Positions 1,046 through 30,000 of a stretch of 33,394 nt of DNA are shown piece by piece. The stretch covers positions 1-33,394 of IMG/VR virus record IMGVR_UViG_3300032130_000010; one strand, written 5' to 3'. A program made the position numbers and the translations under genes. Source of the stretch: a virus (taxonomy: Duplodnaviria > Caudoviricetes). Below the pieces are notes generated by a model, which saw only the letters and a list, made by a program, of their open reading frames with translations, was not told the DNA's origin and searched no databases. The first letter of the stretch is position 1; every line of letters begins with the position of its first letter.

Positions 1046-2041
1046 TTATGGGTATAGTTCGAAGAACTTTTTCCCATCTTCCTCCGGCACCGAATTCTCA
1101 ACATAATGCCGATGAAATATCGTGTGGTCGTTGTGACCTGTGAATCGTAGGCATTTCTCCTGTCCGAAGAACCAGTATCCATAACTGCAGAAGGTGTGCC
1201 TCAGGGCATCGTGCCCAATATATCCTACCGCCCTTCGACGGGCTGACCTCCAAGCACTGTACGCGCAAGGTTCGAAGGGATACTTTTTTATCCACTCGAC
1301 TAGGTTGTCGGAAATCCCGTTCAGTGTCCTTGCTTTTCGTGTTTTCGCTTTTGCTCCGGGAATGTGAATTCTTCGCAAGGCAAGGTTTATGTCCTTTGAC
1401 CCGAGCCGACACGCTTCGTCTGGTCGCACACCTGCAAAGAGCTGAACCGCGAGTCTGCCCTTGTGGGAAACTGCGTCCTTCCCTTTCGAGCATAGCTCCA
1501 GAAGTATAGCGCTTTCCTCAATGGTCAGAAATTCAATCGGCTTTTCGTCTTCAAGGATTTGATCTAGCTTAATTTTCGTAAATTGGTTTTCGCACCATCC
1601 TTTTTCCGAGCACCAAGTCAGGAAGGTGGCGACATCGCTCCTGTAGCCTTTCTGCGTCCATGGGGACTTGAGTTGGGGTTGAGTGCAGAAGGCAACAACG
1701 TCCTCCCTCTTGATTTGGTCGATGTTCCTCGGCCCCGCAAATGAAGCAAAAGAGTTTAGCCTTTCGCGATATGCTGAGTATGTGGCTGGTCGCACGTTCC
1801 TGGACTCGCACCATTCCAGATACATTTCAATAGCCTCTATTATTCCGCAACGCCCACCCGACCATTGTGGATTTGCTCTTCCTTGGACAATATTTTCCGC
1901 CTCTTCCTTCTTTGCGTCCCGTATGAATTTCTGCGCTTTCTCCTTGGATTTGAAGAATTTTCTATAAATTCGCTTCCCGCCGGCGAACAGCGCGACCTGA
2001 TAAGGGGACGATCTTTTTACCTCTGTTAATGTGAATTTCAT
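1046..2041 (-). CDS. int: Tyrosine recombinase / phage integrase
   Basis: Catalytic signature R (FAGVRPDE), K (AKAKTRK), HxxR (HDALRHT), H (TGHN), Y (RHY). SAM-like core-binding region and N-terminal arm-binding-like region (YRKFFKSKEKAQKF). ATG at 2041 preferred over TTG at 2086. Confidence 0.95.
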   Translation of the reverse strand: MKFTLTEVKRSSPYQVALFAGGKRIYRKFFKSKEKAQKFIRDAKKEEAENIVQGRANPQWSGGRCGIIEAIEMYLEWCESRNVRPATYSAYRERLNSFASFAGPRNIDQIKREDVVAFCTQPQLKSPWTQKGYRSDVATFLTWCSEKGWCENQFTKIKLDQILEDEKPIEFLTIEESAILLELCSKGKDAVSHKGRLAVQLFAGVRPDEACRLGSKDINLALRRIHIPGAKAKTRKARTLNGISDNLVEWIKKYPFEPCAYSAWRSARRRAVGYIGHDALRHTFCSYGYWFFGQEKCLRFTGHNDHTIFHRHYVENSVPEEDGKKFFELYP

Positions 2042-2303
2042 GCCACTCGAAAATAAAGTGGTGGCAGATTGGTGGCACGAAATCAAGGTGGAAAATTATG
2101 GAAGTGGCATAAACAAAGGGGGGTTACTGCCACTAAAACCGACCTTTATGGAGTAAAGTGGAATTTCATAAACCACTACCCGTTAGGGAGTTAAAATGGT
2201 CGGGACGGAGAGATTCGAACTCTCGGCCTCCTGCTCCCAAAGCAGGAGGGATACACCTTAAATAGAGGCTCATAAAGTTTTAGTGGCAGAAGGGTGGCAG
2301 TAA
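2041..2303. repeat. GTGGCA-core repeats flanking the att core (putative integrase arm-type sites)
   Basis: GTGGCA at 2061, 2072, 2104, 2283 and 2294; inverted (TGCCAC) at 2041 and 2128. Perfect 13-bp inverted pair: CTGCCACTAAAAC 2127-2139 / GTTTTAGTGGCAG 2277-2289. Confidence 0.75.
2197..2246 (-). other. att core: 3' ~50 nt of tRNA-Pro(UGG), not a complete tRNA
   Basis: Minus strand reads CCTGC-TTTGGGA-GCAGG (anticodon arm, TGG), AGGCC, GAGAG-TTCGAAT-CTCTC (T arm), CGTCCCG-A-CCA. No D arm or 5' acceptor strand follows. Adjacent to the integrase start. Confidence 0.9.
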
Positions 2304-13645: not shown

Positions 13646-14373
13646 TGACATGGGCTGAGTTCAATGAGGCAGTAGTGGACCTCTTATTGACCGACGGAAT
13701 CCGTCGAGGTCGCGGAGTTGAGAAGTTTCGCGACAGGATGATCGTTGCGGGAGTGCGTGACCTTCAGCGGAACATACCCGAACTCAGAACTACCCCAGCG
13801 CTCAAGGTGTATGCCTATGGTGATCTTACTACCCACTCGGAAGGGAAGTCCGAAGTGGGGGATTTCGATTATGAATCAACTCGCCTTCTTGACATTGTAG
13901 TGAGGAGACTCCCCACGGACTCCAACTCCCAGTCGGCTAGCGTTTACTATCGCCCGAAGTTACTACTTACTCAGGACTATTATGACATAGTGGACGGCGG
14001 GGGACGCGCCCGCACTAACTCGTATCCCGGTCGCATCGCCTTTAATTCGGGGAAATTCTATTCTGAACCCGCCCTGCGGGAAGACGAATCTCTCTCCATT
14101 CTCTACAACACGGAAAAGAACTACAAGCCAATCAATGCTTGCACTGAGGCAGAGAAGGCAGAGGAAACTCGGCTAAATGACGATGCCGCTCTTGCCGTGC
14201 ACCATTTCGTAAAGTACCATTTTTCAAAGGACATTGACGACAATCAGAAGCTGGCATCCTCGAACTTTGAACTTTTCAAGAATATCCGTCGCTCAATCTT
14301 TGCAAACCGCAGAGAGTTGGTCGCAACGGAAAGTCCCACAATTCCAGAAGTAGGAGGAGCTCAAGTTGGCTAG
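13642..14373 (+). CDS. Putative head-tail adaptor (P22 gp4 / T7 gp11-like position)
   Basis: 243 aa. Helical N-terminus (MTWAEFNEAVVDLL), beta middle, helical end. Position upstream of the nozzle-like gene. Confidence 0.5.
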   Translation: MMTWAEFNEAVVDLLLTDGIRRGRGVEKFRDRMIVAGVRDLQRNIPELRTTPALKVYAYGDLTTHSEGKSEVGDFDYESTRLLDIVVRRLPTDSNSQSASVYYRPKLLLTQDYYDIVDGGGRARTNSYPGRIAFNSGKFYSEPALREDESLSILYNTEKNYKPINACTEAEKAEETRLNDDAALAVHHFVKYHFSKDIDDNQKLASSNFELFKNIRRSIFANRRELVATESPTIPEVGGAQVG

Positions 14374-16576
14374 CGGATTTGACAGAACCGCCCTGAAGGG
14401 CAAATTCACGACAGGAAGTGATCTTAACGAGAATGCCTTCTCTGACCTTATCGACTCAGTGTCTCACCCGACCGATGTCGTAGATACGGTGGCTACGGAA
14501 CCAACCGGTGGCTTGCCACTCGCTGCATCGGTGGGTTACGACATATCTCAGGACTTGGATACGGTAAAGGTGTCGGTAGCGGCAATTAAGTTGACGCAGG
14601 ATAATTTCGTGAACACCCATCCTACTGCCGCGCAGGTAGCCACGGATATTACATCATCATCAGACACTCTATTGGCGAACATAACGCAGGTAAGCGATTC
14701 CCTCGTCGGGTCGTACACGCCTACCACGGACATCGACACCGCAACCTCGGCTCTTGAGGCGGCAGACACGGCGTTGGACTTAAGGATAGACGCAACTAAC
14801 GCAACCGTATCATCTCTGAGCTCGTCCGCATTATTGAAAACTGAATTTGCGACGGAGAAGGCAGGCCTTACGGCATTGATAAACCTGAAGTCGAATTCCT
14901 CTCACCAGCATTCCGAGTATATTGTCGACGCCGACCTTACCCCTTATGCCAAGCTCACGGACTTAGCGGCAAAGGCAAGTGCCATACATACGCACCCAGC
15001 CAGCGACATAAGCGGTCTGGATGATCTTTTCACGACCCCGCTTGAGGTGCAGGCGTTAATAAATCAGAATCGCGTACTACTGGACGAGACGACAATCCTT
15101 GACGACTTTTACGACAAGGCAGAGGTTGACGAGCAGTTTCGGGTCAAGCGATGGCGCACGGATCAGGTTAGCCTCTTCAATGAGACGGTATTGTCCTTGG
15201 CGGCAATCCCAGCCACCAATATAAAGGATGAAGTAAACCTTTCCATAGCTGCGGTAAGAGTCTCTATGGACTCAAATAAGGCAGGCGTCCTTGCCGAGCT
15301 TTCAACAACCCGAGCCGACCTTGTATCCGAAACCAATCGAGCCACCGCGGCAGAAGTTGCGATTCAGGCGGATGTGGATGCAAATGAAGTTACTTCGACC
15401 GCGAATATCCTCGCCGAGCAGAATCGTGCGTCGGCTGCGGAAGTGGCCTTGGGAGGCAGGATTGATGACGTAATCAGCAACACCGACCCCGCGGCACTAG
15501 ACTCCCTTTCTGAGATAGTTACGCAGTTTCAGTCGAATGACAGTACGCTGAGTTCCGCCATAACCTCTGCCTTGGGTACTCACACAAGCGAACTCAATGC
15601 ATATATATCTGCCAATGACGCCTCCTTGGCATCGGAAGTTGCTCGGGCTGTCGCGGCAGAGTCCTCATTGCAGGCTGGAGTAACCGCGCTACAGACCGAT
15701 CTAGCAACGACTCAGACGAGCATAGCGACTCAAGGTGCGTTGGTATCTGCCAACAGCACGGATATTGCGGACAATGCCACGGCAATCGCAACGACGGCAG
15801 GAACCGTATCCACCTTGCGCTCGGACGTTGACTCCAATGATGTTGATATTGCCGCCTTGCAATCCTCCGTCGGCACCACGCTTCCCGCAACCATAGCAAC
15901 AATAAATTCCGCAATCGCCACCCTCCAGACCCAGGTTGGCGTTGACCTTCAGGCTACAATTGTAAGCATCCAGTCCGAGTTGGCGCTCCTCGAAAACAAG
16001 GTAAACATTACGATAGACCAAAAAGTTGCCGACCTTCAGGAGCAGGTGAACGCTTGTATGGCTCTTATTACTATTCTGGCGGGGACAAGCGGGTCAGGGA
16101 CTTATGATGATCTTGCCGCCGTCACCGGAGTGGAAAGTGCGACACTGGCAATAGCATCACCAATAACTTTATCATCCCCAGCCAACGAACCGTTGACGGG
16201 AGGGTTTGTCTCCATTCCGAAGAATGACACAGTGCTTGCGGGTAATGGCGACTATACCGATCATGTCTTCAAGGGTACCGACAATCCGAATCAATTGATT
16301 GCCTACAACTCGACGCTTGGTCAGTGGGAGTGGCTATGGGTAGACCCCGGCACAGGCGCCATATCCGTGATAGCGTCTCAACCGGACACCGACGATTCGC
16401 ATGTCCCCGAGTTTTGGTCGACAGTAGACCCCGGAGGTGTGTTTGCGGGCTTACCCGATCCACTAGAGGTTACCCCGGATCAGGGAAGCACCTCATCCGT
16501 AGTGAATTACCTAGAGGCTCTTAGATTCTTCACATCAGGGTACGTGCAACAAGGACTTGATTACGCGGGCGGTTAG
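14366..16576 (+). CDS. Coiled-coil tail fibre / spike protein
   Basis: Fibre motifs HQHSEY, HTHPASDISGL, DPAALDSLSEI, ExxRAxAAE repeats and long heptads. TTG start preceded by AGGAGGAG (14352-14359). Confidence 0.75.
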   Translation: MASGFDRTALKGKFTTGSDLNENAFSDLIDSVSHPTDVVDTVATEPTGGLPLAASVGYDISQDLDTVKVSVAAIKLTQDNFVNTHPTAAQVATDITSSSDTLLANITQVSDSLVGSYTPTTDIDTATSALEAADTALDLRIDATNATVSSLSSSALLKTEFATEKAGLTALINLKSNSSHQHSEYIVDADLTPYAKLTDLAAKASAIHTHPASDISGLDDLFTTPLEVQALINQNRVLLDETTILDDFYDKAEVDEQFRVKRWRTDQVSLFNETVLSLAAIPATNIKDEVNLSIAAVRVSMDSNKAGVLAELSTTRADLVSETNRATAAEVAIQADVDANEVTSTANILAEQNRASAAEVALGGRIDDVISNTDPAALDSLSEIVTQFQSNDSTLSSAITSALGTHTSELNAYISANDASLASEVARAVAAESSLQAGVTALQTDLATTQTSIATQGALVSANSTDIADNATAIATTAGTVSTLRSDVDSNDVDIAALQSSVGTTLPATIATINSAIATLQTQVGVDLQATIVSIQSELALLENKVNITIDQKVADLQEQVNACMALITILAGTSGSGTYDDLAAVTGVESATLAIASPITLSSPANEPLTGGFVSIPKNDTVLAGNGDYTDHVFKGTDNPNQLIAYNSTLGQWEWLWVDPGTGAISVIASQPDTDDSHVPEFWSTVDPGGVFAGLPDPLEVTPDQGSTSSVVNYLEALRFFTSGYVQQGLDYAGG

Positions 16577-19057
16577 ATGGCTTATAAGCACATTACCTTC
16601 ACTGTTCCGGAAGGTGGGTCGTTAATAGCCGGATCAAACTCATCGGACACCGCGGGCGCAACGAACTACACCCAGAAGCTAAACTTCAGGCGTGAGTCCG
16701 ACGGCGAGGTAAGACGGGAAGGCTGGGGTCCGGCAAAGGTCGGAAGTGACTCATTTGCCCAGCTCGACACATCTGGATATCCGGTTCGCCTAATGTATCA
16801 GTTTTATTCCGAGGAGAAGCAGGTTTTAGTAGCTTCTGCAGGAGACAAGTTGTTTCGACTGAATGAGGATACTGTACAGTGGGATGTGATTGCCTCAGGC
16901 TTGCAATGCATTGACATTGCCCCATCCGGAGACATTCCCAAGGCGATCAGATGGGAAGCTGTTTCAATTGACGGGTATTGCATATTCAATAACGGAGTCG
17001 ATCTACCCTTGTTTTATCGCGCTGATTGGCCTTGCGCGTTTCCAATTTACTCCCTGAGGGAAAGAGGAATAATTCGGTGCGGAACAATTTCCGAGTTCGA
17101 CGGCAGGCTCTGGATCGGCGACATCGAGTACATCGAAGACTTGTATTTCGGAAACTTAATGACCTCGGCTTCGGAGCCATACGGAATCCCCGAAGGGCAA
17201 TCCCTTGGGTTTGATCTAGGACCCGCGACGTATAGAGTCCCTCATACGGTAGAGTATTCTGCGTGGCGCCTTACCAACACCTCCGGCGAGGCTAGGTCGG
17301 CACCTCATCTATTCGGTCAAGTGTACGGCGATACGGACGACCCGGGCGAAATGATCGTTACGGGATACTTATCAGAAGTGACGGTTACCAATGGCGGAAG
17401 TTACAGTAGTAGCACCCCACCGGCAATTACACTTACAGACCCAAAGGCGGGACAACACACGGAGTATCCCGGCGGCTCGGGCGCTTCCGCAACTGCCGAG
17501 ATGAAAGACAACGAGGACGGAACTTGGAGCGTAGACAAGGTGACGGTTGTTGGAGGCTCGGGTTATCGGGCGATAGATGCAGCGATAACCGGCGATGCCG
17601 TCATTTCCGCATCACTTGCCACATCTCTGCAGGCGATTGAACTCCCCTACCCCATATCCGTGAGCGGAAGTCTGAATCCATATTATACCAGTCCGACATG
17701 GGTAGATTCGGGGAAGAACAGCGAGCCAAATGCAATTAGAATTGGCGACCCACTGCGCATTGTCGACGAGGGAGTTACCGATGCCACTGTCCTGGACATT
17801 TCATCGTCCAGCTCGAAGACCTTGATTAAATTAAGTCCCCTGTCCTCAACCACTCCGAACACCGACGGCGAACCGGCATCCTTTTATTTGCTGAAAGAGC
17901 CTGATTCCGCCAGCACGGACTCAGCTATAACGAGAGAGTCATCAGACACCTTGAGCTTCCCCGAGGATGGTTCGCGCATTCTGAAGATGGCAAAACTTGG
18001 AGATAAGCTACTAATATATCGCCAGACAGGATATGTCGCGATCAGCAGGGGCAACACTCAGTCACCATTCTTTTACGAAGAGAGGTATCGAGGGGAGAGG
18101 GTTGCGGACTTCCGAAATACCGTAATCTCACTCAATGAAGAGAGGCAAATGTTCATAGGGTACAACGGTGCCTTTTTCGTGACTCCCGCCTCGGTTGAGC
18201 CCCAGCCTATGCCAACCTTCATGAATGGCCCCGAATTCTGGAGGAATATCACCGAGGATGACATTGAGCGTATTTATGCAATCGAGAATGGACTGACTCA
18301 GGAAGTTATGATTACCGCTCCGATTGGGCTGCGCCAACGCAACTCAAGCTATGAACTTGATTGGGGTATAGTTGCTTTCGATATGGTGTATGGAACACTC
18401 TCAACAATAGATTTTGCCTTTACTGCCGCCGCGACAATCTTTCCTTCGGACAGGATAAAGAGTCGATGGTTTCTTCTGGCCACGCATACAGTGGCAGACC
18501 TTGACGGATCGGGGATTTACACCGATAGCGAGCTAGCGACCACCGGGATGGGCGTTGGTTCATATATCATGCGCTATGGCTACGGACCCGCGGAGGGCGG
18601 ACACGGACCTTATCGAATATTTTCACGTGATGGAGGCGGGTACACCTCTACCATAAAGTTCGGCTTGACCGACTTCGGGAATCGGTTTTCCGAGAAAAGC
18701 CTAAGAAGCTACCTCGTGCATCTGTCGGACGCATTCCCCGATGAGGGGTTTGATGACTTCATGGAATCCGACTATGTGGCGGACGACTACCTCAAGAATG
18801 CTTCTGCGTCCATTGCCATATCCTCACATTCATCGGCGCCGGATGCTGCGATTGACGAGGTTGTCGAAGAGCTCACGAGTTTGGGGGTTCAGAATATGGT
18901 GCCACTTTTTGCCAGAGGCAATTACTTTCAGGATGCACTTTCAATTACCGGGGACAGCGTAGGGTTTAAGTTGATCGGGCGAACATTTGAGGTAAGCGGA
19001 GTAAAAACCCGACATGTATCCGAGGCGGTTCAAGTTGTGGAGGTTGTCGATGCCTAG
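16577..19057 (+). CDS. Putative tail nozzle (P22 gp10 / T7 gp12-like)
   Basis: 826 aa, beta-rich. N-terminal LNFRRESDGEVRREGW and C-terminal FGLTDFG...KSLR resemble podovirus nozzle termini. Confidence 0.6.
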   Translation: MAYKHITFTVPEGGSLIAGSNSSDTAGATNYTQKLNFRRESDGEVRREGWGPAKVGSDSFAQLDTSGYPVRLMYQFYSEEKQVLVASAGDKLFRLNEDTVQWDVIASGLQCIDIAPSGDIPKAIRWEAVSIDGYCIFNNGVDLPLFYRADWPCAFPIYSLRERGIIRCGTISEFDGRLWIGDIEYIEDLYFGNLMTSASEPYGIPEGQSLGFDLGPATYRVPHTVEYSAWRLTNTSGEARSAPHLFGQVYGDTDDPGEMIVTGYLSEVTVTNGGSYSSSTPPAITLTDPKAGQHTEYPGGSGASATAEMKDNEDGTWSVDKVTVVGGSGYRAIDAAITGDAVISASLATSLQAIELPYPISVSGSLNPYYTSPTWVDSGKNSEPNAIRIGDPLRIVDEGVTDATVLDISSSSSKTLIKLSPLSSTTPNTDGEPASFYLLKEPDSASTDSAITRESSDTLSFPEDGSRILKMAKLGDKLLIYRQTGYVAISRGNTQSPFFYEERYRGERVADFRNTVISLNEERQMFIGYNGAFFVTPASVEPQPMPTFMNGPEFWRNITEDDIERIYAIENGLTQEVMITAPIGLRQRNSSYELDWGIVAFDMVYGTLSTIDFAFTAAATIFPSDRIKSRWFLLATHTVADLDGSGIYTDSELATTGMGVGSYIMRYGYGPAEGGHGPYRIFSRDGGGYTSTIKFGLTDFGNRFSEKSLRSYLVHLSDAFPDEGFDDFMESDYVADDYLKNASASIAISSHSSAPDAAIDEVVEELTSLGVQNMVPLFARGNYFQDALSITGDSVGFKLIGRTFEVSGVKTRHVSEAVQVVEVVDA

Positions 19058-19328
19058 AAGAAAGAAAGCGACAAGACCTTTCAGCAACATGAGCATCAGC
19101 TTTAATCCAAACCAAAAGGATTTAACGGGCGGACTGAATCGTATGCGTGAAAAACTTGACAGGATCGCTTCCGTAGCGATTGAGTCGGACGCGGAGTCAG
19201 AGGGCGGTTTTGACGATTTCTCTGCCGCGCTTGAGGATACCTCCCCTCTTCCCGGAGCCACCGGTGAACTTCTTTCGGGTGACGCAGCTCAACAGTTAGC
19301 CGACTTTGAGGCAGCATTCAATTCGTAA
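19050..19328 (+). CDS. Hypothetical protein
   Basis: ATG 19050 with upstream GGAGG, overlapping the nozzle stop. Contains DDFSAAL and ADFEAAF. Confidence 0.6.
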   Translation: MPRRKKATRPFSNMSISFNPNQKDLTGGLNRMREKLDRIASVAIESDAESEGGFDDFSAALEDTSPLPGATGELLSGDAAQQLADFEAAFNS

Positions 19329-19346
19329 CCTAGTTCGTTAGGTAAC
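19325..19346. promoter_or_regulatory. Operator-like 22-bp motif GTAAC-N4-TTCGTTAGGTWAC (copy 1)
   Basis: GTAACCTAGTTCGTTAGGTAAC; matches 19841-19862 at 17 of 22 positions. Confidence 0.55.
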
Positions 19347-19390
19347 TTTTTTCTTGAAAGTTACGGAATAGTAGGCAATGTTATGTGCCT

Positions 19391-19579
19391 ATGAAAGACG
19401 AATCCTGTCTCAGGTATGTTTCCTCAAGAACCATACAGGAAAAAATGGAGGTGACCGGGAAGACCGTGCGAGCTTGGTCGAAAAGAATGGGTTGGAGGTT
19501 TCAGAAAATCAATGCTCGGGTAATAAGGTATTGCGCGGAAGATGTTGAGCGAACCCTCAAGGTGGACTTATCGAGATGA
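19391..19579 (+). CDS. Small winged-HTH protein (Xis/AlpA/MerR-like)
   Basis: YVSSRTIQEKMEVTGKTVRAW...KINARVIRYCAEDVER matches the excisionase/AlpA-type pattern. ATG 19391 (track start GTG 19385). Confidence 0.7.
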   Translation: MKDESCLRYVSSRTIQEKMEVTGKTVRAWSKRMGWRFQKINARVIRYCAEDVERTLKVDLSR

Positions 19580-19824
19580 GCAGTATTCTTGCACAACTTG
19601 GCTCAAAAGTTAAAACACAACTTGACACCAAGCTGGATGCTTCAGGTGGTAGCGTGTCGGGGACGCTGGAGGTGGATGGACATATAAAACTGCCCGTGTA
19701 CACGACTTCGACTATTCCGACAGCGGGGGTTGCCCGTCGCATGGTTTATGTCTCCGACGAGGATTGCTTGGCATTTGATACGGGAAGTTCGTGGAAGAAG
19801 GTGAATTTTGGCTCTGAGCTTTGA
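19576..19824 (+). CDS. Short fibre-like protein
   Basis: KLDASGGSVSGTL and LPVYTTSTIPTA...MVYVSD...LAFDTGSSWKKV are phage fibre neck/head-type motifs. Confidence 0.65.
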   Translation: MSSILAQLGSKVKTQLDTKLDASGGSVSGTLEVDGHIKLPVYTTSTIPTAGVARRMVYVSDEDCLAFDTGSSWKKVNFGSEL

Positions 19825-19831
19825 AAGTGCC

Positions 19832-19864
19832 TTGACTGGTGTAACGGATTTCGTTAGGTTACAC
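19832..19864 (+). promoter_or_regulatory. Sigma70-like promoter TTGACT-N17-TAGGTT overlapped by operator-like motif copy 2
   Basis: -35 at 19832-19837, -10 at 19855-19860; inverted repeat GTGTAAC 19839-19845 / GTTACAC 19858-19864. Confidence 0.55.
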
Positions 19865-19901
19865 TTGCCTAACTCATATTAACAAATCAGAATAATCAAT
19901 C

Positions 19902-20876
19902 ATGTCTAGTATCTTCACACTTCTCGGTCAAAAGACCAAAGCATTCGTAAACACGCAAGTTACCGCATTGGAAAATGGGGCTGTTGCGACCAACGCATCG
20001 AACATCTCGACCAACACGTCAAGTATTGCGACTAACGCATCGAACATCTCGACCAATACTGCGACCGGTGCGACAAACGCCAGCAACATTTCGACCAACA
20101 CGGCGAGCATTGCAACAAACGCCAGCGACATTTCGACTAACGCCGCAAGCATTGTCTCCGAGGCCGCCACCGCACGTGCCGCCGAGGTAGCCAATGCCAG
20201 CGATATTTCAACGAACACGTCGAACATCACGACTAACGCGTCGAACATCTCGACCAACTCGGCGGATATTTCGACTAACACGTCAAGTATTGCGACAAAC
20301 GCTTCCGACATATCCACAAACACCTCGAGCATTTCGACTAACACATCCGACATCTCGACCAACACATCGAGCATCTCAACCAACGCATCGAACATCTCTA
20401 GCAACGACAGCGACATCTCCGACTTGGAGACGCAGGCTGGATCGCTCGCCGCCGATGGCAACTCCGCTTCTTTCAGCGGCGACCTCGGGGCTGCCAACAT
20501 GGTGTTGACCGGCAACTTGACTGTTCAAGGCGCCACGACCGCAGTCCAGACGACCAACTTGGACGTTTCCGACAGCATCCTAAACCTTTCCAAGGGCGCA
20601 GGAGACGGTTCCAACGCAGCTAATGACGTTGGGTTTGTGGTAGAGCGTGGCTCTGCCGAAAACAACGTAGCATTCGTCTGGGACGAAGGTAACGATCGGT
20701 TCACTGCTTATGAAGCTTCCAGTGGAACTTCCTTCAGCGCCACCGATACGGACTTGGACAGCACGGACGGCTCCGCCGGTTTCGCTACAGCCCAGTTTGC
20801 CGACGTTTACGTTAACAATGGCGGCTCTGCCACCAACCTTGGCACGGTTGCCGAGTTTGACGCAGCACTTGCTTAA
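19902..20876 (+). CDS. Fibre protein with IxxNxxx heptad stalk
   Basis: About 18-19 heptads of the ISTNASN type, then GNLTVQG-type beta segments and a ..VVERG...FVWDE.. fibre module. Confidence 0.75.
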   Translation: MSSIFTLLGQKTKAFVNTQVTALENGAVATNASNISTNTSSIATNASNISTNTATGATNASNISTNTASIATNASDISTNAASIVSEAATARAAEVANASDISTNTSNITTNASNISTNSADISTNTSSIATNASDISTNTSSISTNTSDISTNTSSISTNASNISSNDSDISDLETQAGSLAADGNSASFSGDLGAANMVLTGNLTVQGATTAVQTTNLDVSDSILNLSKGAGDGSNAANDVGFVVERGSAENNVAFVWDEGNDRFTAYEASSGTSFSATDTDLDSTDGSAGFATAQFADVYVNNGGSATNLGTVAEFDAALA

Positions 20877-20913
20877 AATTAATTTTTCCCGAGGGGGGGA
20901 ATAGAAAAGGGTT

Positions 20914-20955
20914 AGCCTCCCATCTGCGTAGCGGGTGGGAGGCTTTTCTTTGTTT
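20914..20955 (+). terminator. Rho-independent terminator
   Basis: AGCCTCCCA (20914-20922) / TGGGAGGCT (20936-20944) stem followed by TTTCTTTGTTT. Confidence 0.8.
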
Positions 20956-20982
20956 GACCATTCCGCTGTTACCTAATACATT
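20954..20982 (+). promoter_or_regulatory. Sigma70-like promoter TTGACC-N17-TACATT for the long fibre gene
   Basis: -35 at 20954-20959, -10 at 20977-20982, ATG at 20990 (near-leaderless geometry). The spacer holds GTTACCTAA (20968-20976), the reverse complement of TTAGGTAAC. Confidence 0.6.
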
Positions 20983-20989
20983 ATCTGAC

Positions 20990-23900
20990 ATGAGTATCTC
21001 GCCACTAATCTTCAACGGTAACGGTACTCCCGGTGCCGTAAGTACCGATGACACAAACAAAGTTTCCTTAAGGAAGCTCACGACTGCGCCCCTGACGCAT
21101 GACGATCTGGACGACAACTTTCAGTCCATATCAGAGAAGATCAACGATCTGGTCGGCGCGGTAGTACCGCTATTCTCGAACTGGGACACTTCTAATCCAA
21201 CCAGTCCAACCCAGCAGTTGACCCTCCAAGGGTACCCGGCGTTGAAGGTATTGAGTAACGACGGACTCTCGAAATATCAATTCTACCCTCACGATAACGG
21301 ATATTTATATATCAACGACGAAACCCAAACGAGGATAGTCATCTCCGACGTCGGATTCGTCGGAATCGGGACTGGAACGCCGGGTAATCCCCTTGAGGTA
21401 CAAACTGTTGGCGCGAAATACGGTTTGTCGGTTTGTGATAGCGCCAATCAGCTAGGAGGCTTGTACGTGAGCGACAACTCCGGGTCTGGTGGATTGGATT
21501 TGTATTTAAAGGATCGGACAGCCGGGACTACAAAGTCCTTAATAGCATCGACTCCGAACCTTGATAGTTATTTCAACAACGGTGGCAACGTCGGAATCGG
21601 GACTGATGACCCAGAATGCCAATTAGACTCTACTGGGACGATCAGAGCCATAACGGGCGCCCAAGTCGCGCCGTCGCATGGCGAGGGTCTGGAGATGTTT
21701 CACAACGGCGTACGGGGATATCTTATTCCCTATGATCGAGATACTAGCACATACGGCGATGTTCAATTAGGCACGGCTCTGCATGTGAAAGGTGACCACA
21801 AATCAACGGTTTTCCTTGGAGCGACAGGATCACCCGAGCACAAATCTGGTGGTCTTAAGATCGGTGAAGACTGGGATGCGGCGGATTCAGATGTGAACGG
21901 TCCAATCGCCAAGCTGGTCGTTCAAGGCCGCCCGGACTACTGGAATTCGGCCCAGATTGAAAACACCTCCACCACCGGAACGGGCATCACGTTGTTTAAT
22001 GAAGACTCAGGGGTCAAGTGGAGCCTAATATCGCAAGGCTCAATTGGAGGTGCCGGTGAGAATAACTTAGGGTTTCACTTGACAGGCGCTGGCTCTTCGA
22101 CAGGCGTTCCGGGCTACAAGATGTCCTTGACCGAGGACGGCCATCTCAGTTGCGGGACTGATGCAAACGGTAATCAAGCCGTAACCTTACAACCCGGTTA
22201 CGCAACGAACTCTTATTCCAAGGTTTTTGCCTCCAGCTACCTGAACCTTTCCCTTGGCAGCGGATCAGGCGCCGAGCCAAGAATATATTTGCGTGGAACC
22301 GGCACGGGCGTGACCACAGCAGGCGACATATACATGGCATCTGCCCAAGCTGCCAATTGCTTGGTTATCCAAGGCACTACCGGCAACGTCGGAATCGGGA
22401 CTAATCAACCAAGCGCTAGGTTGTCGGTCCTAAGCAGTGACCCCGGCACGAATTCTGCCATAATAGAAAACGACCATTCCGAAGGCTACGGTCTGAAGAC
22501 GATTGGCGGAGGCAACACCACTACTCGTTATCTTGCTGATTTTAGAGATAAAGATGGGGTATCGGGTTTAAAAATAGACGGCGACCGCAACGTCGACATC
22601 GGCGGCAATCTCGACGTAGGCGGTATAATTTCAGGCGACGCCTCGGGCTTGACGAACCTTCCTTCATCAGCCGCGTCGTCGGGCATCTTCACGAATCAAC
22701 TGTCCCCGCTTGGCGGCGCCCAGCAAAGTCCTCCCGTACCGGGGGCAGATACTGTAACGCTAAGCGCCCCTGATCCAACTTTACGATTTAGTGACTCCAC
22801 AAACACAGGGGACATGACACTTTACTGGCAGGCAGCCGCCTCCGCCTCCACCCTGACCGCGATTGGTGGAAGCGGTAAGGGAGGTTTATATTTCTACAGA
22901 AATGCCGATCCGCAAGTTTTTCCCCGCGATGTCAATATGATGATTGATCTAGACGGCAAAGTCGGAATCGGGACTGATAATCCAACGCACAGTCTTACCA
23001 TTGGGGATGGCACTAGCAATGAGTGGATAAAAATAGACGGCGAAGAGGGCCATTTCTCCGTTGGTACGGGTAGCATTTCCAACGGCAAAAAATACTTTTC
23101 TTTATACGATAGCGAAAGCAACAATCATAGACTTACGATTAGTGAGGAAGGCAACGTCGGAATCGGGACTGTTACGCCCGTCGCGCCGTTGGAAATCAAA
23201 GGCCCAGATGGCCCTGTAACAACATCGAATGACGCTATTGTCATCCGTGCCGCCTCCACCGCTCACATTTTAACGATGGGCACCGACTCTTCGACCGGAA
23301 CATCATGGATTCGTCCGGTCCAAGAGAATGTTGGCAATAATAAATTACTACTGGATGCCACTGAGGTGGGAATCTCATCTTCTGAAACAACAGGACTGCT
23401 GTTAGTAAATCCGGATTCTGCCGCCACAAACGATAGCAATGATCCACCTGCAATTTTATTTCAGGCAAGCGGATGGGACACCAATGCAGGGTCTGAAGGA
23501 TATCGGGCTAGAATCCGAGTCAAAGGAGGCTACTCAGGCGCGCCTAATCGTGGTAATACACACCCTGTAATGCACTTCGATCTGGAAACGAATGAGGACA
23601 ATCCTGATGACGCCCTGAGTACCAAGATGGTAATCAATGCTGACGGCAATGTCGGAATCGGGACTGATTTAGATGATATAGATTCAGACTTTGGTTTATC
23701 TATACATAATAGAGCCGGGATACTTGTAAGAAACATCCAAGGGGCACTTAATAGTCAAACGAATATAATTCGCGGCTCAATTTCAGATCGCTATGACCAA
23801 GATGATTGGGGTGTTGGAATAAATCAAGTAGTAGAAAACAACAGTAATGGATTCGGAATGGCATTTTGGACACGCAATGCTTACAACGGATCATATTCGG

Positions 23901-24883
23901 AAAAGGTTCGTATTGATAAGGATGGCCAGGTCGGAATCGGGACTGATAATCCTGCATCATTTTTGCATGTCGCTGGTGGCGCTTCAAATAATCAAGCATT
24001 ATTTGAAAGTACAGACGGTACAAGTTCCATACAGTTTAAAGACCCGGCTGGTACTGCAGAATTTGGTAATAAGGGTGATGATGCTGTTATCATGCCGGCA
24101 GGGGTCGAAAAAATGCGAATAAAAGCCAATGGCAACGTCGGCATCGGGACTGATGAGCCAAATGCAAAACTCTGCGTTCATTCAGAAACCACAACGGCAT
24201 ATGGAGGCTCAGTGCAGGACCTCAATAATCGGATTAACCTTCGCAATGAAGTGAGTACTGACGGCTTGCATCAAAACGTAGGAATATCGTTTGAACTTAA
24301 AACAACAGGAAACGGTTTCTCAAGATATTCATGGATTGGCTCGGTTCAGGATCAAGCAAACGCACGATATAGTTCTTTGGTATTTGGTACAGACGAAGGA
24401 ACAAGCGCACAACCTAATCGTCTAGAAAAAATGCGTATCACCTATGACGGCAAAGTCGGAATCGGGACTGATTCGCCGAGCAGAACTCTTACGACTGCTG
24501 GTAATTTTCGTTTGGAAAAAACAGCAGCCGATGGAAGTCATGATGCATTAGATGTCAACGTTGGGGGAGGTGCAGACCATCCCGAACTTAACATATATGA
24601 TAAGGAAGGAGATGCGGGCGTATTCATAGTTACCGCGACCACGGTGAGCAATTTAACCGAACCGCGCGTCGGAATCGGGAAAACATCGCCATCGGTCGCA
24701 CTTGATATTGATGGTGATGTCGCCATCGATGGGAATCTCGCGACCACCAACATAGCGGATGTAGAAGATTCCATCCTAACAAACATGGTCGAAACAAACG
24801 GCAAGGTCACTTTCGGCGGCACTGCGGTAAACAGCATCGACTTCACCATAAACGGAACGACTCTGGAAATCACAACATCCTAA
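20990..24883 (+). CDS. Long modular tail fibre with GNVGIGT repeats
   Basis: N-terminal anchor-like LRKLTTAPLTHDDLDDNF; ten VGIG(T) repeats separating dissimilar modules. ATG 20990 preferred over TTG 20954. Confidence 0.85.
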   Translation: MSISPLIFNGNGTPGAVSTDDTNKVSLRKLTTAPLTHDDLDDNFQSISEKINDLVGAVVPLFSNWDTSNPTSPTQQLTLQGYPALKVLSNDGLSKYQFYPHDNGYLYINDETQTRIVISDVGFVGIGTGTPGNPLEVQTVGAKYGLSVCDSANQLGGLYVSDNSGSGGLDLYLKDRTAGTTKSLIASTPNLDSYFNNGGNVGIGTDDPECQLDSTGTIRAITGAQVAPSHGEGLEMFHNGVRGYLIPYDRDTSTYGDVQLGTALHVKGDHKSTVFLGATGSPEHKSGGLKIGEDWDAADSDVNGPIAKLVVQGRPDYWNSAQIENTSTTGTGITLFNEDSGVKWSLISQGSIGGAGENNLGFHLTGAGSSTGVPGYKMSLTEDGHLSCGTDANGNQAVTLQPGYATNSYSKVFASSYLNLSLGSGSGAEPRIYLRGTGTGVTTAGDIYMASAQAANCLVIQGTTGNVGIGTNQPSARLSVLSSDPGTNSAIIENDHSEGYGLKTIGGGNTTTRYLADFRDKDGVSGLKIDGDRNVDIGGNLDVGGIISGDASGLTNLPSSAASSGIFTNQLSPLGGAQQSPPVPGADTVTLSAPDPTLRFSDSTNTGDMTLYWQAAASASTLTAIGGSGKGGLYFYRNADPQVFPRDVNMMIDLDGKVGIGTDNPTHSLTIGDGTSNEWIKIDGEEGHFSVGTGSISNGKKYFSLYDSESNNHRLTISEEGNVGIGTVTPVAPLEIKGPDGPVTTSNDAIVIRAASTAHILTMGTDSSTGTSWIRPVQENVGNNKLLLDATEVGISSSETTGLLLVNPDSAATNDSNDPPAILFQASGWDTNAGSEGYRARIRVKGGYSGAPNRGNTHPVMHFDLETNEDNPDDALSTKMVINADGNVGIGTDLDDIDSDFGLSIHNRAGILVRNIQGALNSQTNIIRGSISDRYDQDDWGVGINQVVENNSNGFGMAFWTRNAYNGSYSEKVRIDKDGQVGIGTDNPASFLHVAGGASNNQALFESTDGTSSIQFKDPAGTAEFGNKGDDAVIMPAGVEKMRIKANGNVGIGTDEPNAKLCVHSETTTAYGGSVQDLNNRINLRNEVSTDGLHQNVGISFELKTTGNGFSRYSWIGSVQDQANARYSSLVFGTDEGTSAQPNRLEKMRITYDGKVGIGTDSPSRTLTTAGNFRLEKTAADGSHDALDVNVGGGADHPELNIYDKEGDAGVFIVTATTVSNLTEPRVGIGKTSPSVALDIDGDVAIDGNLATTNIADVEDSILTNMVETNGKVTFGGTAVNSIDFTINGTTLEITTS
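21359..24682 (+). repeat. Dispersed in-frame 15-bp direct repeat GTCGGAATCGGGACT
   Basis: Perfect at 21359, 21590, 22388, 22961, 23156, 23651, 23930 and 24455; one mismatch at 24137; first 13 of 15 bases at 24668. Confidence 0.95.
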
Positions 24884-24889
24884 CAAGCC

Positions 24890-26689
24890 ATGACAGACAT
24901 TAGCTTTTTTGACGGGCTGTCGGGCGCTAGTGGTGCTCCGACCGAAGTAAAGTTCAACGGTACGGACATAACTGAAATAAAGATCAGAGAAGGCGCCGGG
25001 GCGTTTACTACCGCATGGACATCCGTGCCTCCCGCCCCTACTCCCTCCACTTCTTACAATTATTTATCCGATGCCACCGACGGCTCGGGCAATCCTCAAC
25101 CGCACTTCATTCCCGACTTCAGTACGCCGACGGCAACGATTTACGTGCCATCCCAGTATGCTTCCGATGTCTATTCGGATTCTTCGAGTAGTGTGGGGTA
25201 TAAAAAGCAATTCGGGTGTGGCGGGACTGCGATTGACGGAGACGTCTGTGCAGTCATCGCGAAAATGGGCGGCAGTAATCCTGTAGGGGATTATCCCGAA
25301 TACGGGATGGTGTTTATTTACGAACGCAGTCAGTTTGGATGGAGTTTTTCGGCATCATTCGGCGGAATTCCCGGCAATGCCAATACCGACCAATGGAATC
25401 ACATGGGAGGCTACGAAAGCTCTACCGGATCAGCAATTGCCGTTCATAACGGCAGAGTGTTTGTGTCGGCGGGTAGTTTCAGTAAGTCCGTTTATATTTT
25501 CTCTAAGGACGCCGGTACTTGGTCGCTGGAGGCTAGGGTAACAGGTTCCTCTTCAGGCATAGAACAAAGCAGCAACTACAGTGATGACATCTCGCTGTCA
25601 GTTCATGGCGGTATAATTGCAATGGGGTTACCCCACGCCCGTGGCGACATCGCTCACACCGGCACCAGTAATCATTCGGGCATTGTCGCTGTGTACGTTG
25701 CCCCCAGTAAAGACGAGTGGGTAACCGGCACCCGTGGACAAACTGTTCCTTGGACATACTGGATGAGTCAGGGTGCGTATGCGGAGGACGACAACGACAG
25801 CTACCACCATATGAACATGGGATTTTCGGTAGCCGTGCATGACGGTCGGGCAAGTGGAGGTAAAAGCGTGATTGTCGGCGGGGTGGCCAAAACCGTAGCG
25901 GTTAAAAATTCTCATTATTATTGGATTAGCAATTCCAGCCATCAACATGCCTACGGTGCCAGTTTCAATTCCAGTTCAGGAATTGTAGACCCCGACGGAG
26001 TCGTATCGGTGCCAACAACCAATTCAACGACGCTCGACGCATACTGGGCGGAAACCCAAGCATCTTTGTGTGGTTGGGGTAACGACATAACCTTTCTCGC
26101 CTCCACCGGGGCTGACAGCGCGAATGCCGCAACGGAGCGCCTCTACCAGTTAGACGACGCCGGGGGTTCTTGGGATTTTAGTTTCATGCAATATATCAAC
26201 GCCTATTGGGGGGGGATAAATGAAAATATGAATGAAGATCACCCCGGTAGACGTGGTCATGCCACCATTCTAGCGGATCGACTAATCGTTGCCGGGGGGC
26301 GGTATGACTGGCATCCCGTAAGGAGCGTGTTTATGCGTGAGCAGACTGGCGCAGGGGGCGCAAGTCAGAACATTGTTCAGGGCGATTACTTCATCGACGC
26401 TTTCAATGGGGGACTCCCTGACCTCAATCCGTCAGGGGGGTCTGTGTCTGGCGGCGGAGTCACTTCCCCGGACTCGCAAAATGCAGATTTCGAGGGGTAC
26501 GTAAACTTTCACGGCGATCTTTCGTCCTACTGGACAGCAAACCAATCGTCCCTTGAGGCGACTCATGGGAATAAGCGCGGATGGGGCGAAGCGCATTGGT
26601 ATACAGCTGGCATAAAAGAGGGAAGGGAAATGAAGTACCAATTCACAACCTATGATTACGATGATGGAGTGAAAATATATGAAGGATAA
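24890..26689 (+). CDS. Putative receptor-binding protein with FG-GAP-like beta-propeller blades
   Basis: Blade-like repeats TAIDGDVCAVIA, AIAVHNGRVFVSAG, SLSVHGGIIAMG, GFSVAVHDG, with VFIYER / VYIFSKDAGTW strands. Confidence 0.6.
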   Translation: MTDISFFDGLSGASGAPTEVKFNGTDITEIKIREGAGAFTTAWTSVPPAPTPSTSYNYLSDATDGSGNPQPHFIPDFSTPTATIYVPSQYASDVYSDSSSSVGYKKQFGCGGTAIDGDVCAVIAKMGGSNPVGDYPEYGMVFIYERSQFGWSFSASFGGIPGNANTDQWNHMGGYESSTGSAIAVHNGRVFVSAGSFSKSVYIFSKDAGTWSLEARVTGSSSGIEQSSNYSDDISLSVHGGIIAMGLPHARGDIAHTGTSNHSGIVAVYVAPSKDEWVTGTRGQTVPWTYWMSQGAYAEDDNDSYHHMNMGFSVAVHDGRASGGKSVIVGGVAKTVAVKNSHYYWISNSSHQHAYGASFNSSSGIVDPDGVVSVPTTNSTTLDAYWAETQASLCGWGNDITFLASTGADSANAATERLYQLDDAGGSWDFSFMQYINAYWGGINENMNEDHPGRRGHATILADRLIVAGGRYDWHPVRSVFMREQTGAGGASQNIVQGDYFIDAFNGGLPDLNPSGGSVSGGGVTSPDSQNADFEGYVNFHGDLSSYWTANQSSLEATHGNKRGWGEAHWYTAGIKEGREMKYQFTTYDYDDGVKIYEG

Positions 26690-27023
26690 GCCAGAGGAAG
26701 AATTGTCCGAAGAGGAGCACAAGGAGCGTGTTCAAAAGTCCCGAGCCAAAAGACAGGCGAGGAAGGACAGGGCGGAAGCCGAGAGACAAGCTCACTCCCA
26801 TTTAGAGAAAAACCTAAAGGCGGACGAGTCCCAGCCGCAGGCAACCCCCGCGCCCAATAGGAAGCCTTGGGCAAACACCACCAAGGCGAAGTGGGGAGAA
26901 ATCCTGAAGTCCTCAGAAGCCGAGGAGCACTTGGCGAAAAACCTTTTGAGCAACGAGGAGTCCGACGCCGAGGAAAAGGCAAGGGTTCACTTGGCTAAAA
27001 ACCTGAAGGCCAATGAGCTATGA
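26679..27023 (+). CDS. Charged hypothetical protein with three HLxKNL repeats
   Basis: HLEKNLKADE, HLAKNLLSNE, HLAKNLKANE. Overlaps both neighbours. Confidence 0.6.
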   Translation: MKDKPEEELSEEEHKERVQKSRAKRQARKDRAEAERQAHSHLEKNLKADESQPQATPAPNRKPWANTTKAKWGEILKSSEAEEHLAKNLLSNEESDAEEKARVHLAKNLKANEL

Positions 27024-30000
27024 ATGGAAGTTCGCGCCGCATGTCGAGGAGGACGCCGGCAATTCAGTCTTTGTCAGCAACTTCAACCTGCACGGCGAGG
27101 TCAATAAGGTTCCGTACAAGGACGGCAAACCGCTTTACGACGATCCGGAGTTTGCCACAGCGGCAAAAAAGTGGATACGGGAAAATCATCCCGGCTATCC
27201 CGTGGATGAGCGTTACGGGTGGTGGAGCTACAAGAGGTGGTGGAAGGAGGGGGCGTCAGTCCGCGCACTTCTCACGCCTTTCGCCAAGGCATGGATTGAG
27301 GCAAGAGAGGTTGAGCCGCGCCGGAGTGGTCAAGTTGCCGTGGATGAACTTGATGAATTGCTCAAGAATATTGAGGGACTTAAGTATGCAACCGTCAACA
27401 AGTTCAGTAGCTGGGATGCCCGCACCCCCATTTGGAACGGTGGTCATCTGTTTTCCAGTCAAGAATTCAAGGACTTCATGGACACGGGAAACCGGTGGAA
27501 GGGTTTGTTCGGCGGTCGCGCACCTACCACAGAGCACCACCAATGGTACGGCAGCAAAGGCAGGGAAACAGTCGCTCGGATGCATGCAAACGTCGAGGAC
27601 TTCTTCAAAAAGAAAATCGACGACCTTAAAGCCAGTCTTAAGCCAGAAATGAACTACGGAGACATAGTCGCATCGGAGGGTAAGCGCTATATCGTTGGGG
27701 AAAACGACGAGCTTATTCCTACTTCCGACAATATCGCGGGCAACGCCGAGGACGGCTATGAATATGTCGGGTACCAATTCTATCCGACGAAAGGAAGCGA
27801 CGATAGCGAGTTTGCGCTTGGATATACGGCGGGCACTGGAACGAGCATGGATCTGGACGTTGCCCCCGAGGAAATCATGCAGCTTGATCTACTGGAAGCG
27901 GACCTCTTGGGGGATGGTAGTACACTAATGACGGACTTTGCGGGTGGCTTTTGGACGGAGGAATACCTTTCCAAAAGATTTCAGGACACCGCAAAGTTTT
28001 CCACAACCAAAGCGTCATTCGATCCTCGGGCCGAGCCGGGATACTCTGGCGGTCCTCACCGTGTTCAGTTGGAAATCGAAATGTTAGTCCCTACTGGATG
28101 GATTGGCGTTGTCCCGACTGCAGACGCCGAAGCAGTTACTAGAGGAGCTTTCACCGACGAGGGCACGGGTGCGCTAGTCACAAACGACAAAGACACGCAG
28201 TTTTACTCATACAAACGGGGGGTGAATGCCAACGGCGACTTCTCGACGGGCGCCACGCTTGTTAATTTGACGAACTCGGATAAATTCTCAGCACATGGCG
28301 ACGACGCCTCGGGTTACTCGCTCAAGTGGGATGGTGAGTATGCCGAAACTGACTCGGGGAGGATTTCTGACTCTGAAGGTTTTCTGGGAGAATCGCTCAT
28401 GAGTCGCATTCGGGCTGACCAAAATGGATTTGTCGTCAATCATGAGGGAAGCTGGGCGTACGACACAGGCGATGGCTGGATGTATGATACGGCCGGAGGC
28501 TTGGGTTGGTATTACAAAGGTGAAGACGACAATTGGATTTTCGCCACCGACAGCAGAGGTGACGCCAAGGGAAACTGGTTGTACTGGGATAACATGCCTG
28601 ACCATCCCGGCGAAGTTGCTTATTATGCAAATGGATCCAATGAGTGGATGTTCAACCGCGACGGCACTTGGATTACCCCGGAGGGCGCAACGACGACCCT
28701 TGAGGCGTCAAGCATGGCAAAGCCTACGGAGAATCCCGACTTAGACATTCAAAAGGAGTTGACGGACGCGGAGTGGTTGGCCAGAGGCAACAAGCTTCCC
28801 GACGGATGGGTCGACGCCAACAAAGACGGCTATGACGACAATACCCTCTTGAATAGGGATGGGTCGCAGTCGCTTTTCAAAGAAGGCGGACCCGACGCCG
28901 ACACCGACAAGTCGCCCAAGAAGTGGGAGAAACACCCGGTACTTGGCGATGTTTGGTATCAAGATAAGGCATCACCCGACGAGGAAAACTGGATGTACGT
29001 CGCCGACACGGGTCGCTGGATGTACGATGCCCCACCGGGCGAGATGGAAGGCTGGGTTTACGATGATGAGACTTCCCGATGGATGTTTCCGGCCGAGCGT
29101 GATGGCGAAATCTGGTACATGGTCGAGGACAGTCCTTATAACCGGACCGAAGACGCCGATGGCAAGACTATTCCGAAAGGACCATGGGTGCATTCCTCTC
29201 AAATGAGCAAACCCATTGGAGAATGGGAAGTATCCTACCCAGAAGAAAAAGATGAAGTTGATCCGAATTTCGAGCAAACCAACGGTGTTGACCCGAGACT
29301 TCTAAACTACTCGGACGAGCACGGCAATACCTACAAGGGAGTGTATGCCGAGGACGCCGCTTACGACAAGGCGATAGAATTTGCCAATGAGCGAAAATTC
29401 CAAGACGGTCTTCCGTGGGACAGAAAAGTGATGTCCGACGTCTGGGACGGAATCTTCAAGACCTCTGATGAGAATCCCGGAAGCAATCCATTTAGATTCC
29501 TCGATGATTATTTCGGTGACAAGGACTCCGATGCCTACCGACTTTTTGATAAAGCGTGGAACGAGGAGACGAAACGAGAGGCGGTCGAGCGTCAAGCCTC
29601 CGACGTAATTGGTGGCGCGATCGACGCCGGTGCTCCAATGCCGACGAATCCGCTCGGAACCGTAATGGAGCAAGTCGGGCAATACCTCGAAAAGCCGTAC
29701 ATCAAGGATGAAAACGGGAATGTCATCCCGAACCCGAAGTACGAAAAAGCAAAGGATCACAGCATTTTCTTTGAGCATGAAGGCGAAGCCAAGACGTGGT
29801 CGCCGAACTGGCTTTTTCCCTTCGACATGAAGACGCAAGAGGCGGGCATTCGTGCCAGCCTGAAGGACAAGGCGGACGAGAGAAACGCCATGTACAGGGA
29901 CAAGATTCCCGCGCAGATCAAGGATGAGGCAGGTAATCTTATTGCCAATCCCGATGCGGGTACGAATGGCGAATATGCGGGCATGACCCAAGTGGAGAAG

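Follow-up and report, generated by a model that had tools for sequence, protein, structure and literature searches.

The window analyzed here, that is, the whole 33,394-base stretch of the virus record IMGVR_UViG_3300032130_000010 (44% complete by CheckV), carries a tail-fibre gene in which one 15-nucleotide DNA word, GTCGGAATCGGGACT, recurs in frame between modules that are unrelated to each other. The observation of a frozen in-frame word was confirmed. What sets the gene apart from known systems is that a single DNA word stands at each joint, in a chain whose length varies and whose modules are unrelated. We consider it probable that the word has a dual role, as the boundary of a capping loop in the fibre protein and as the homology for short-homology exchange and conversion, with an annealase as the likely catalyst. 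Relatives and unrelated viruses appear to swap modules at the word, and the most likely route is the usual recombination of phages, not an integron-like or CRISPR-like machine.

The frozen word, its modules and the encoded peptide

Exact copies of GTCGGAATCGGGACT were found at 21359, 21590, 22388, 22961, 23156, 23651, 23930, and 24455, and near copies at 24137 (one mismatch) and 24668 (two mismatches). All ten copies were on the + strand and in frame within the open reading frame (ORF) 20990-24883. Other matches in the window, at 11414 and 12840, had three mismatches each (chance expectation about 1). The longest perfect tracts between repeat copies were 27, 23, 22, 21, and 21 nt, with a median of 16 nt over 45 pairs. 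The copy positions, the spacings, and the extended identities of 21 and 27 bp given in a preliminary description of this DNA were all right on recount.

The same description had pointed out that one of 768 possible encodings is used almost always. The probability that at least eight of nine VGIGT copies share any one string was 4.7e-17 under the codon usage of the gene itself, 8.7e-16 under the motif-specific usage of 333 family copies, and 1.3e-14 under the usage of 160 GC-matched family copies, so that none of the three codon models gave a value above about 1e-14. Codon or codon-pair bias, as judged by these models and by codon-pair controls, was insufficient to explain the 15-mer. The frozen core was short, reaching from about -6 to +20 nt around the repeat start. 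Identical codons were used in 28/36 same-residue pairs at position -2, in 36/45 to 45/45 at positions 0 to +4, and in 15/15 at +5. Outside the core, agreement was lower: Ile at -6 had identical codons in 6/21 pairs, and two positions that were conserved as residues were not conserved as codons, namely Pro at +7 (11/36) and Leu at +11 (9/36). The third-base agreement of the window array was 0.96 within the array, compared with 0.29 between arrays.

The modules, numbered as in Table 1, were 77, 266, 191, 65, 165, 93, 69, 106, and 71 aa long, in agreement with the spacings. When the repeat ends were trimmed, DNA similarity among modules was limited to matches of 10-22 nt and protein matches were weak (best E 0.003). 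This supported the earlier view that the intervening modules are unrelated, and recent tandem duplication, which would have spoken against it, was not found in this comparison. The GC content at third codon positions (GC3) of the modules ranged from 0.30 to 0.62, in comparison with 0.50-0.65 in the other genes of the window. Searched separately, M3, M5, M8, and M9 had homologues in other arrays; the cores of M1, M4, M6, and M10 had none at E 1e-3 among 386 loci. M1 resembles modules of loci L375 and L378 by whole-protein alignment and reading by eye. Degenerate, unfrozen repeat remnants were present at 22145 and 22588, within the two longest modules, which suggests that long modules are older fused units.

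We also compared the window with assembled contigs, which drop rare variants, from 4 of the 20 runs holding the fibre gene (19/20 rows for these runs were labelled marine metagenome). Contigs from these four runs, which belong to four studies, spanned 10/10 repeats in the same order as in the window. Because contigs of independent studies span all ten joints, the array is not an assembly chimera. The sole difference in the repeat region was a cluster of eight substitutions at 24607-24641. This cluster changes five M9 residues and is common to contigs of runs X3, X4, and X8; it is a micro-scale population allele, possibly formed by a short conversion tract. A 3-nt insertion at 26779 was seen in one contig of run X4.

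The fibre protein matched the PHROG tail fibre families 9942 (E 6e-37) and 18345 (E 8e-25). No meaningful match was obtained against Pfam and NCBIfam; the whole protein against PDB and the N-terminus against viral contigs gave nothing useful, and a search of a protein database at near length returned the self-match alone. In the ESM Atlas, the matches were to unnamed clusters (0.95-0.97) and to PF26696 (0.89), which were treated as a lead only. A profile built from 54 repeats (10 from the window and 44 from 12 loci) matched five PDB sequences, all of them Bdellovibrio mosaic adhesive trimer (MAT) fibre structures (best E 2e-16). The repeat consensus, I-xxx-GNVGIGTT-x-P-xxx-L, agrees with the MAT capping-loop type V-G-(G/N)-x-x-x-P-x-x-x-L. 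In the published description of MAT fibres, this motif forms capping loops that bound the segments of an intertwined trimeric beta-helix (PMC10769870). Since the MAT motif bounds segments, the repeat is presumably a structural boundary here too. By sequence the fibre belongs to the MAT-type family, its trimeric state being predicted from the MAT structures. A C-terminal Peptidase_S74 chaperone had no match in the window fibre protein or in that of L322, and was found in the L042 fibre (E 8e-14).

Concerted evolution and apparent module exchange in related arrays

Similar arrays were common in viral and metagenome contigs and were also present in cultured cyanophages and pelagiphages (24 records); every count excluded loci L347-L349, which are the window itself. 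From a codon-blind sample of at least 147 stretches, 43 arrays with three or more copies were analyzed. Third-base identity within arrays was 0.55, in comparison with 0.35 for GC-matched arrays set against each other and 0.36 at other codons of the same gene, and within-array identity exceeded between-array identity in 40/43 arrays. The arrays differed in the frozen string, at every synonymous position. Identity that is higher within than between arrays, together with different strings in different arrays, argues for concerted evolution and not for one universal site. Codon freezing was also seen in a cultured phage array. In S-SM2 (L393 2290-5049), the gene has a GC3 of 0.19, yet its repeats contain many C- and G-ending codons.

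The cultured cyanophages S-CRES1 and S-CRES2 are 96.5% identical overall, and their fibre genes, with 12 repeats, showed 14 differences in 3954 nt. Twelve of the 14 differences, in four clusters, were located within -31 to +25 of a repeat start, a zone that makes up 17% of the gene. At one repeat the S-CRES1 allele was the same as a sister repeat at 5/5 differing sites (33/34 nt), and at another the S-CRES2 allele was the same as a sister at 4/4 differing sites (39/41 nt). In the two other clusters, the gene offered no donor for the changed allele. S-CRES1/2 therefore contain tracts that match copying from a sister repeat, and similar copying presumably took place in the window phage. Overwriting between sister copies leads to one codon string frozen per array, as shown in S-CRES1/2 and as would apply to the window.

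Next to this conversion, the composition of arrays was compared among relatives. The syntenic relatives L322, L374, L375, and L378 had 8, 2, 5, and 4 or more repeats, respectively, and modules largely different from those of the window. The preliminary description would have been contradicted by relatives with an identical module order; instead, the anchor was kept while module number and kind differed. In L322, the flanking proteins were 37-74% identical and the C-terminal tail was alike, but no internal module core was in common with the window at E 1e-3. L374 and L375 were 86% identical to about aa 173, seven codons ahead of the first repeat of L375, and their DNA similarity restarted at a repeat in both.

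M8 was also present in a complete 211-kb virus, which otherwise shared only repeats with window positions 14000-33394. Followed stepwise, the two sequences agreed at 33/35 positions at the first repeat, then at 93/160, then at 145/147 in a tract ending at the next repeat, and then at 22/48. In L111, one 65-aa module was present four times in full and a fifth time truncated at the contig end; the copies were 90-100% identical, repeat-bounded, and placed between unrelated modules. Among tract ends in 198 arrays (at least 80% identity), 9/16 were at a repeat in both partners, in comparison with 3.1 expected. Homology crossed a repeat in 6/90 directed comparisons (all one pair), in comparison with 121/433 at control sites. 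From this pattern across genomes we infer events of module exchange. The proposal that the repeat acts as a crossover site was partly supported, in so far as gain, loss, and exchange are concentrated at the repeat, but breaks inside modules were common and no deletion joint was found in four population assemblies.

Three side observations concern these genomes. Large genes are clustered in the 211-kb virus (G001; L391 7437-19647, L392 28-4812); three of them (995, 1321, and 1594 aa) contain repeat arrays, and one is S74-ended. Capsid families used to class this virus gave no match, either with it or with controls. The L111 protein (G004) has 21 repeats in 7 kb, most with one string, and its first long module, of 412 aa, contains a putative intein/Hint segment. 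When prokaryote genomes were searched for an integrated relative, the single match came from a bin with the title uncultured archaeon; it stops before the fibre region and was not used for host assignment.

Recombination machinery and competing explanations

In the dual-role explanation, the repeat would encode a capping loop, by which every segment of an intertwined trimeric beta-helix is closed, and would for that reason be a natural in-frame segment boundary. The repeat is also the sole homology among otherwise unrelated modules, and short-homology recombination would therefore use it. Sister copies in one gene may overwrite each other over about 15-40 nt, and crossovers at one or two copies could add, drop, or replace modules, always in frame, with co-infecting viruses or prophages as putative donors. 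Exchange would maintain the uniformity of the word, and this uniformity would in turn favour exchange. Selection for fibres that fold and that make new contacts with the host surface would filter the products, and the process would be evolutionary in pace and no rapid switch. To judge from relatives, the catalyst is likely to be a phage annealase of the Rad52/Red-beta type acting with a PD-(D/E)XK exonuclease.

A Rad52-like annealase was found in relatives G002, G003, and G006 and is annotated in both S-CRES phages. In the complete genome G002, the orthologue (41% identity) of the window tyrosine integrase-like gene (Int) is followed after 1.3 kb by the annealase, which adjoins a PD-(D/E)XK exonuclease, RusA, and SSB; annealase and exonuclease are at L390:7905-9454. 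No Rad52-like annealase was found in the window fragment, which is 44% complete; by synteny, it would lie just past the left end. For this reason, the absence of an enzyme from the window, which the preliminary description had noted, says little. No reverse transcriptase was found in 25 window or 58 G002 proteins, and no pair resembling a template and a variable repeat (TR/VR) was found in the incomplete window. The Rad52 recombinase (L396 3956-4651) is annotated as one gene in S-CRES1; the S-CRES2 annotation has a shorter gene there, together with another ORF. G002 has two tyrosine-recombinase-like genes (L387 15895-16935 and L390 5643-6563).

The earlier suggestion of an integron-like or CRISPR-like array was not sustained by the data, given the different frozen strings, the breaks inside modules, the lack of a deletion joint, and the following results. 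Int scored 19.1 bits against TIGR02249 (cut-off 265) and lies 19 kb from the array. No attC-type folded sites were found, since 36-nt repeat windows folded at -0.5 to -6.2 kcal/mol without a common structure. Polar growth was not seen in 66 arrays, many of them cut by locus ends (mean rho -0.03; 28 positive, 36 negative). No recurring nuclease or recombinase family was found among 843 neighbour ORFs of 101 array loci, read by eye over short flanks, and no second nuclease candidate beyond the recombination module was found in 58 scanned G002 ORFs. The 25 window proteins gave no match to Cas1/Cas2, and the repeats differ from those of a CRISPR array in being coding and spaced by 195-798 nt. The array also differs from a shufflon in that its ten copies all have the same orientation; only one match was on the minus strand, 10 kb off and with three mismatches.

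Several observations weigh against the dual-role explanation. The minimal pairing segment is reported as 23-27 bp for Red-beta and 31-34 for RecA (PMC3945230), and only 2/45 repeat pairs reach 23 nt of perfect identity, which is marginal for Red-beta. With best tracts of 27 and 23 nt and a median of 16 nt, rare events are predicted, which is consistent with a stable order. No exchange was caught in the window phage itself: the order was unchanged in all four runs, and no joint with long sides was found among the 15 listed of 24 joints, in contigs that drop rare variants. Joints whose sides measured 21-26 nt were attributed to further arrays that have this word and not to deletions. The 211-kb virus gave no Rad52 match. 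Breaks inside modules were common (312/433 control comparisons were one-sided), the 145/147 tract of M8 begins mid-module, and for 40/84 of the one-sided cases at repeats no repeat in register was recognised in the partner. The tract-end and repeat-crossing tests are small or pseudo-replicated, alignments tend to continue through a conserved motif, and L042 and L322 came from a search with the word itself. Only 5/43 codon-blind arrays reached a third-base identity of 0.8, which makes the window, at 0.96, extreme. The S-CRES differences form only four clusters and may be consensus or assembly errors. Finally, the dual-role explanation leaves a codon skew, described below, unexplained.

Passive homogenization combined with a protein filter, in which conversion freezes the word as a by-product while illegitimate joins occur anywhere and capping-loop chimeras are those that fold, is an explanation that we regard as rather unlikely, though it accounts for part of the data. 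The S-CRES1/2 conversion tracts are at repeats without module change, breaks within modules are frequent, the module order is stable in the population, and most arrays are only mildly homogenized while their modules are mosaic nonetheless. However, the 145/147 tract passes through the word and stops at the word end, and the same string is common to unrelated viruses. Moreover, L322, which was chosen by the word, keeps 27/38 third bases of the window string, in comparison with 39/96, 24/86, and 33/121 in flanking genes, and the conserved Pro and Leu codons beyond the core are unfrozen.

The codon skew bears on a second alternative. In 133 codon-blind ORFs, third bases were C-rich to the left of the motif centre and G-rich to the right, beyond codon-pair controls at every GNVGIGT position. 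With one copy per ORF, the left side had C 0.32 and G 0.13, and the right side C 0.12 and G 0.28; examples against controls were GGC (0.44 vs 0.20), GTC (0.31 vs 0.12), GGG (0.26 vs 0.07), and ACG (0.39 vs 0.12). Repair at crossovers may have left this skew as a footprint, or it may be the mark of a site-specific enzyme. V3-G2 complementarity was above expectation (143 vs 110+-8), and the GTC/ATC/GGG form was over-represented (31/333 copies vs 7.7 expected, in 14/133 loci). However, I3-G2 complementarity, which is off the dyad register, was comparably strong (134 vs 110), and the hairpin gain of the repeat was only -0.21+-0.07 kcal/mol. A strict dyad or hairpin site was therefore unsupported.

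The skew is the main support for a dedicated site-directed system, in which a nuclease or recombinase, possibly supplied in trans from the host or another element, would cut the word as a quasi-dyad and start cassette exchange. The variation of the frozen strings between arrays at every synonymous position, the off-register complementarity, the lack of a recurring enzyme family or a second G002 nuclease candidate, and the arrays without polarity all argue against it, and we consider such a system improbable. It is equally doubtful that the word is a shared connector standard, a quasi-dyad skewed site at which marine phages and large viruses trade fibre modules drawn from a common pool, with exchange started by a dedicated nuclease in trans; if true, this connector standard would amount to an in-frame cassette system within a single ORF.

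Trivial causes are very improbable: short exact repeats can mis-join assemblies, contigs of other runs start or end at repeats, and the family has some motif-specific codon bias, but codon and codon-pair bias is ruled out by the probabilities and controls given above, recent tandem duplication by the unrelated modules of the window gene (internal reuse of modules does occur in L111 and a few other arrays), and chimeric assembly through a 21-27-nt repeat by the contigs of other studies spanning 10/10 joints, and freezing occurs in a cultured phage.

The features of the fibre gene are collected in Table 1. The window genes include, besides Int, a terminase and a portal gene. A 324-aa gene upstream of the fibre gene contains 21-nt (7-residue) tandem repeats at 19945-20427, and its homologues adjoin arrays in 10 loci. 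A near-perfect 21-nt tandem repeat was seen at 8130-8234, at the 3' end of the portal gene. A 28-nt inverted pair (15-42 and 19345-19372; 82% complementary, 19.3 kb apart) is possibly a shared operator or promoter. Its second copy is directly upstream of a 64-aa ORF (19385-19579) that is helix-turn-helix-like by eye and had no Pfam or NCBIfam match.

Table 1. Parts of the fibre gene and the integrase-like gene in the window
Feature	Position	Strand	Supporting match
Fibre gene (1297 aa) with N-terminal anchor, nine internal modules and ten VGIG(T/K) repeats, and a short tail at the C-terminus	20990..24883	+	PHROG
M0, N-terminal anchor; first ~58 aa retained in five relatives	20990..21358	+	32-44% identity to L322, L374, L375, L378, L382, E 1e-8 to 8e-11
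Repeat 1, exact	21359..21373	+	
Repeat 2, exact 15-mer at 21590 inside GGCAAC...GAT	21584..21607	+	
Repeat 3, exact, 21-mer form	22382..22402	+	
M3; 5' half with homologue in another array; degenerate internal repeat near 22588	22388..22960	+	L333 44% aa, E 5e-13
Repeat 4, 27 nt, same as 24446-24472	22952..22978	+	
Repeat 5, exact, 21-mer form	23150..23170	+	
M5; 3' two thirds present at a different position in a relative's fibre	23156..23650	+	L378 50% aa, E 3e-30
Repeat 6, exact	23651..23665	+	
Repeat 7, exact	23930..23944	+	
Repeat 8 (one mismatch), M8, and repeat 9; common unit with unrelated 211-kb virus	24131..24472	+	24326-24472 145/147 identical, ends at word
M9; homologue in another array starts at repeat and stops just before that array's next repeat	24445..24632	+	L328/L368 78% nt
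Repeat 10, two mismatches (VGIGK), then C-terminal tail resembling that of L322	24668..24682	+	
Tyrosine integrase-like gene; context only, without demonstrated link to repeats; G002 orthologue is followed by Rad52-like module	1046..2086	-	

Comparison with known systems

Host-recognition fibres are the most mosaic phage genes, and their joints are rarely visible. In the present array, a defined word of 15-27 nt is both a structural segment boundary and an apparent crossover, which makes it a testable question whether exchange hotspots arise from DNA homology or from selection for foldable chimeras. Synonymous recoding would separate homology from folding selection, and the cultured phages S-CRES1/2 carry such arrays. 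The M8 unit points to module traffic between a temperate phage lineage of about 75 kb and the 211-kb virus. The word is also a warning, as assemblies break at such words. A literature search, whose coverage mostly excluded subscription papers, found no paper on DNA-level freezing of the GNVGIGT/VGIGT motif.

Integrons, CRISPR arrays, shufflons, and diversity-generating retroelements resemble the present gene in having variable units separated by repeats in an array. These systems are defined by their own enzymes, sites, and polarity. In contrast, the defining enzymes, sites, and polarity of integrons, CRISPR arrays, and shufflons were not found here, within the 44%-complete contig and the relatives examined. 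GRINS are long skewed tracts, whereas the skew here covers about nine codons and flips at the motif centre. In polyketide synthase genes, GRINS have been described as linking module gene conversion with nucleotide skews (PMC8256042).

MAT fibres (PDB 8OND, 8OML, 8OL4, 8OJN) carry the same peptide motif and are likewise chimeric, with segments between capping loops (PMC10769870). In the parts of that account that treat the motif, it is structural, recombination is mentioned with regard to cloning, and DNA-level freezing does not appear. In contrast to the S74 subgroup of MAT fibres, the present gene is from a phage and has no S74 domain. Relaxed recombination by Rad52-like proteins (Red-beta, RecT, Sak), for which short, diverged homology is enough, agrees with the annealase found in the relatives; that work describes general mosaicism of temperate phages and, in its sections on this system, no repeated connector within a gene (PMC3945230).

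Closer parallels are found in receptor-binding proteins. DNA motifs of 20-95 nt that flank tailspike receptor-binding domains have been proposed as cross-genus recombination hotspots; these are two or three different motifs, 63-81% identical, around one domain, whereas here ten copies of one word stand in series (PMC10408124). For the T-even adhesins gp37/gp38, Tetart (1996, 1998; cited in PMC3157838) described exchange at conserved motifs, and breakpoints were enriched at conserved motifs here also (9/16 vs 3.1; 6/90 vs 121/433). T-even gp38 is described as having five motifs in fixed number and order with short homologous loops (PMC3157838). In contrast, the arrays described here have a variable number and order of unrelated modules of 65-266 aa, with one DNA string at all joints and with apparent exchange across unrelated viruses.

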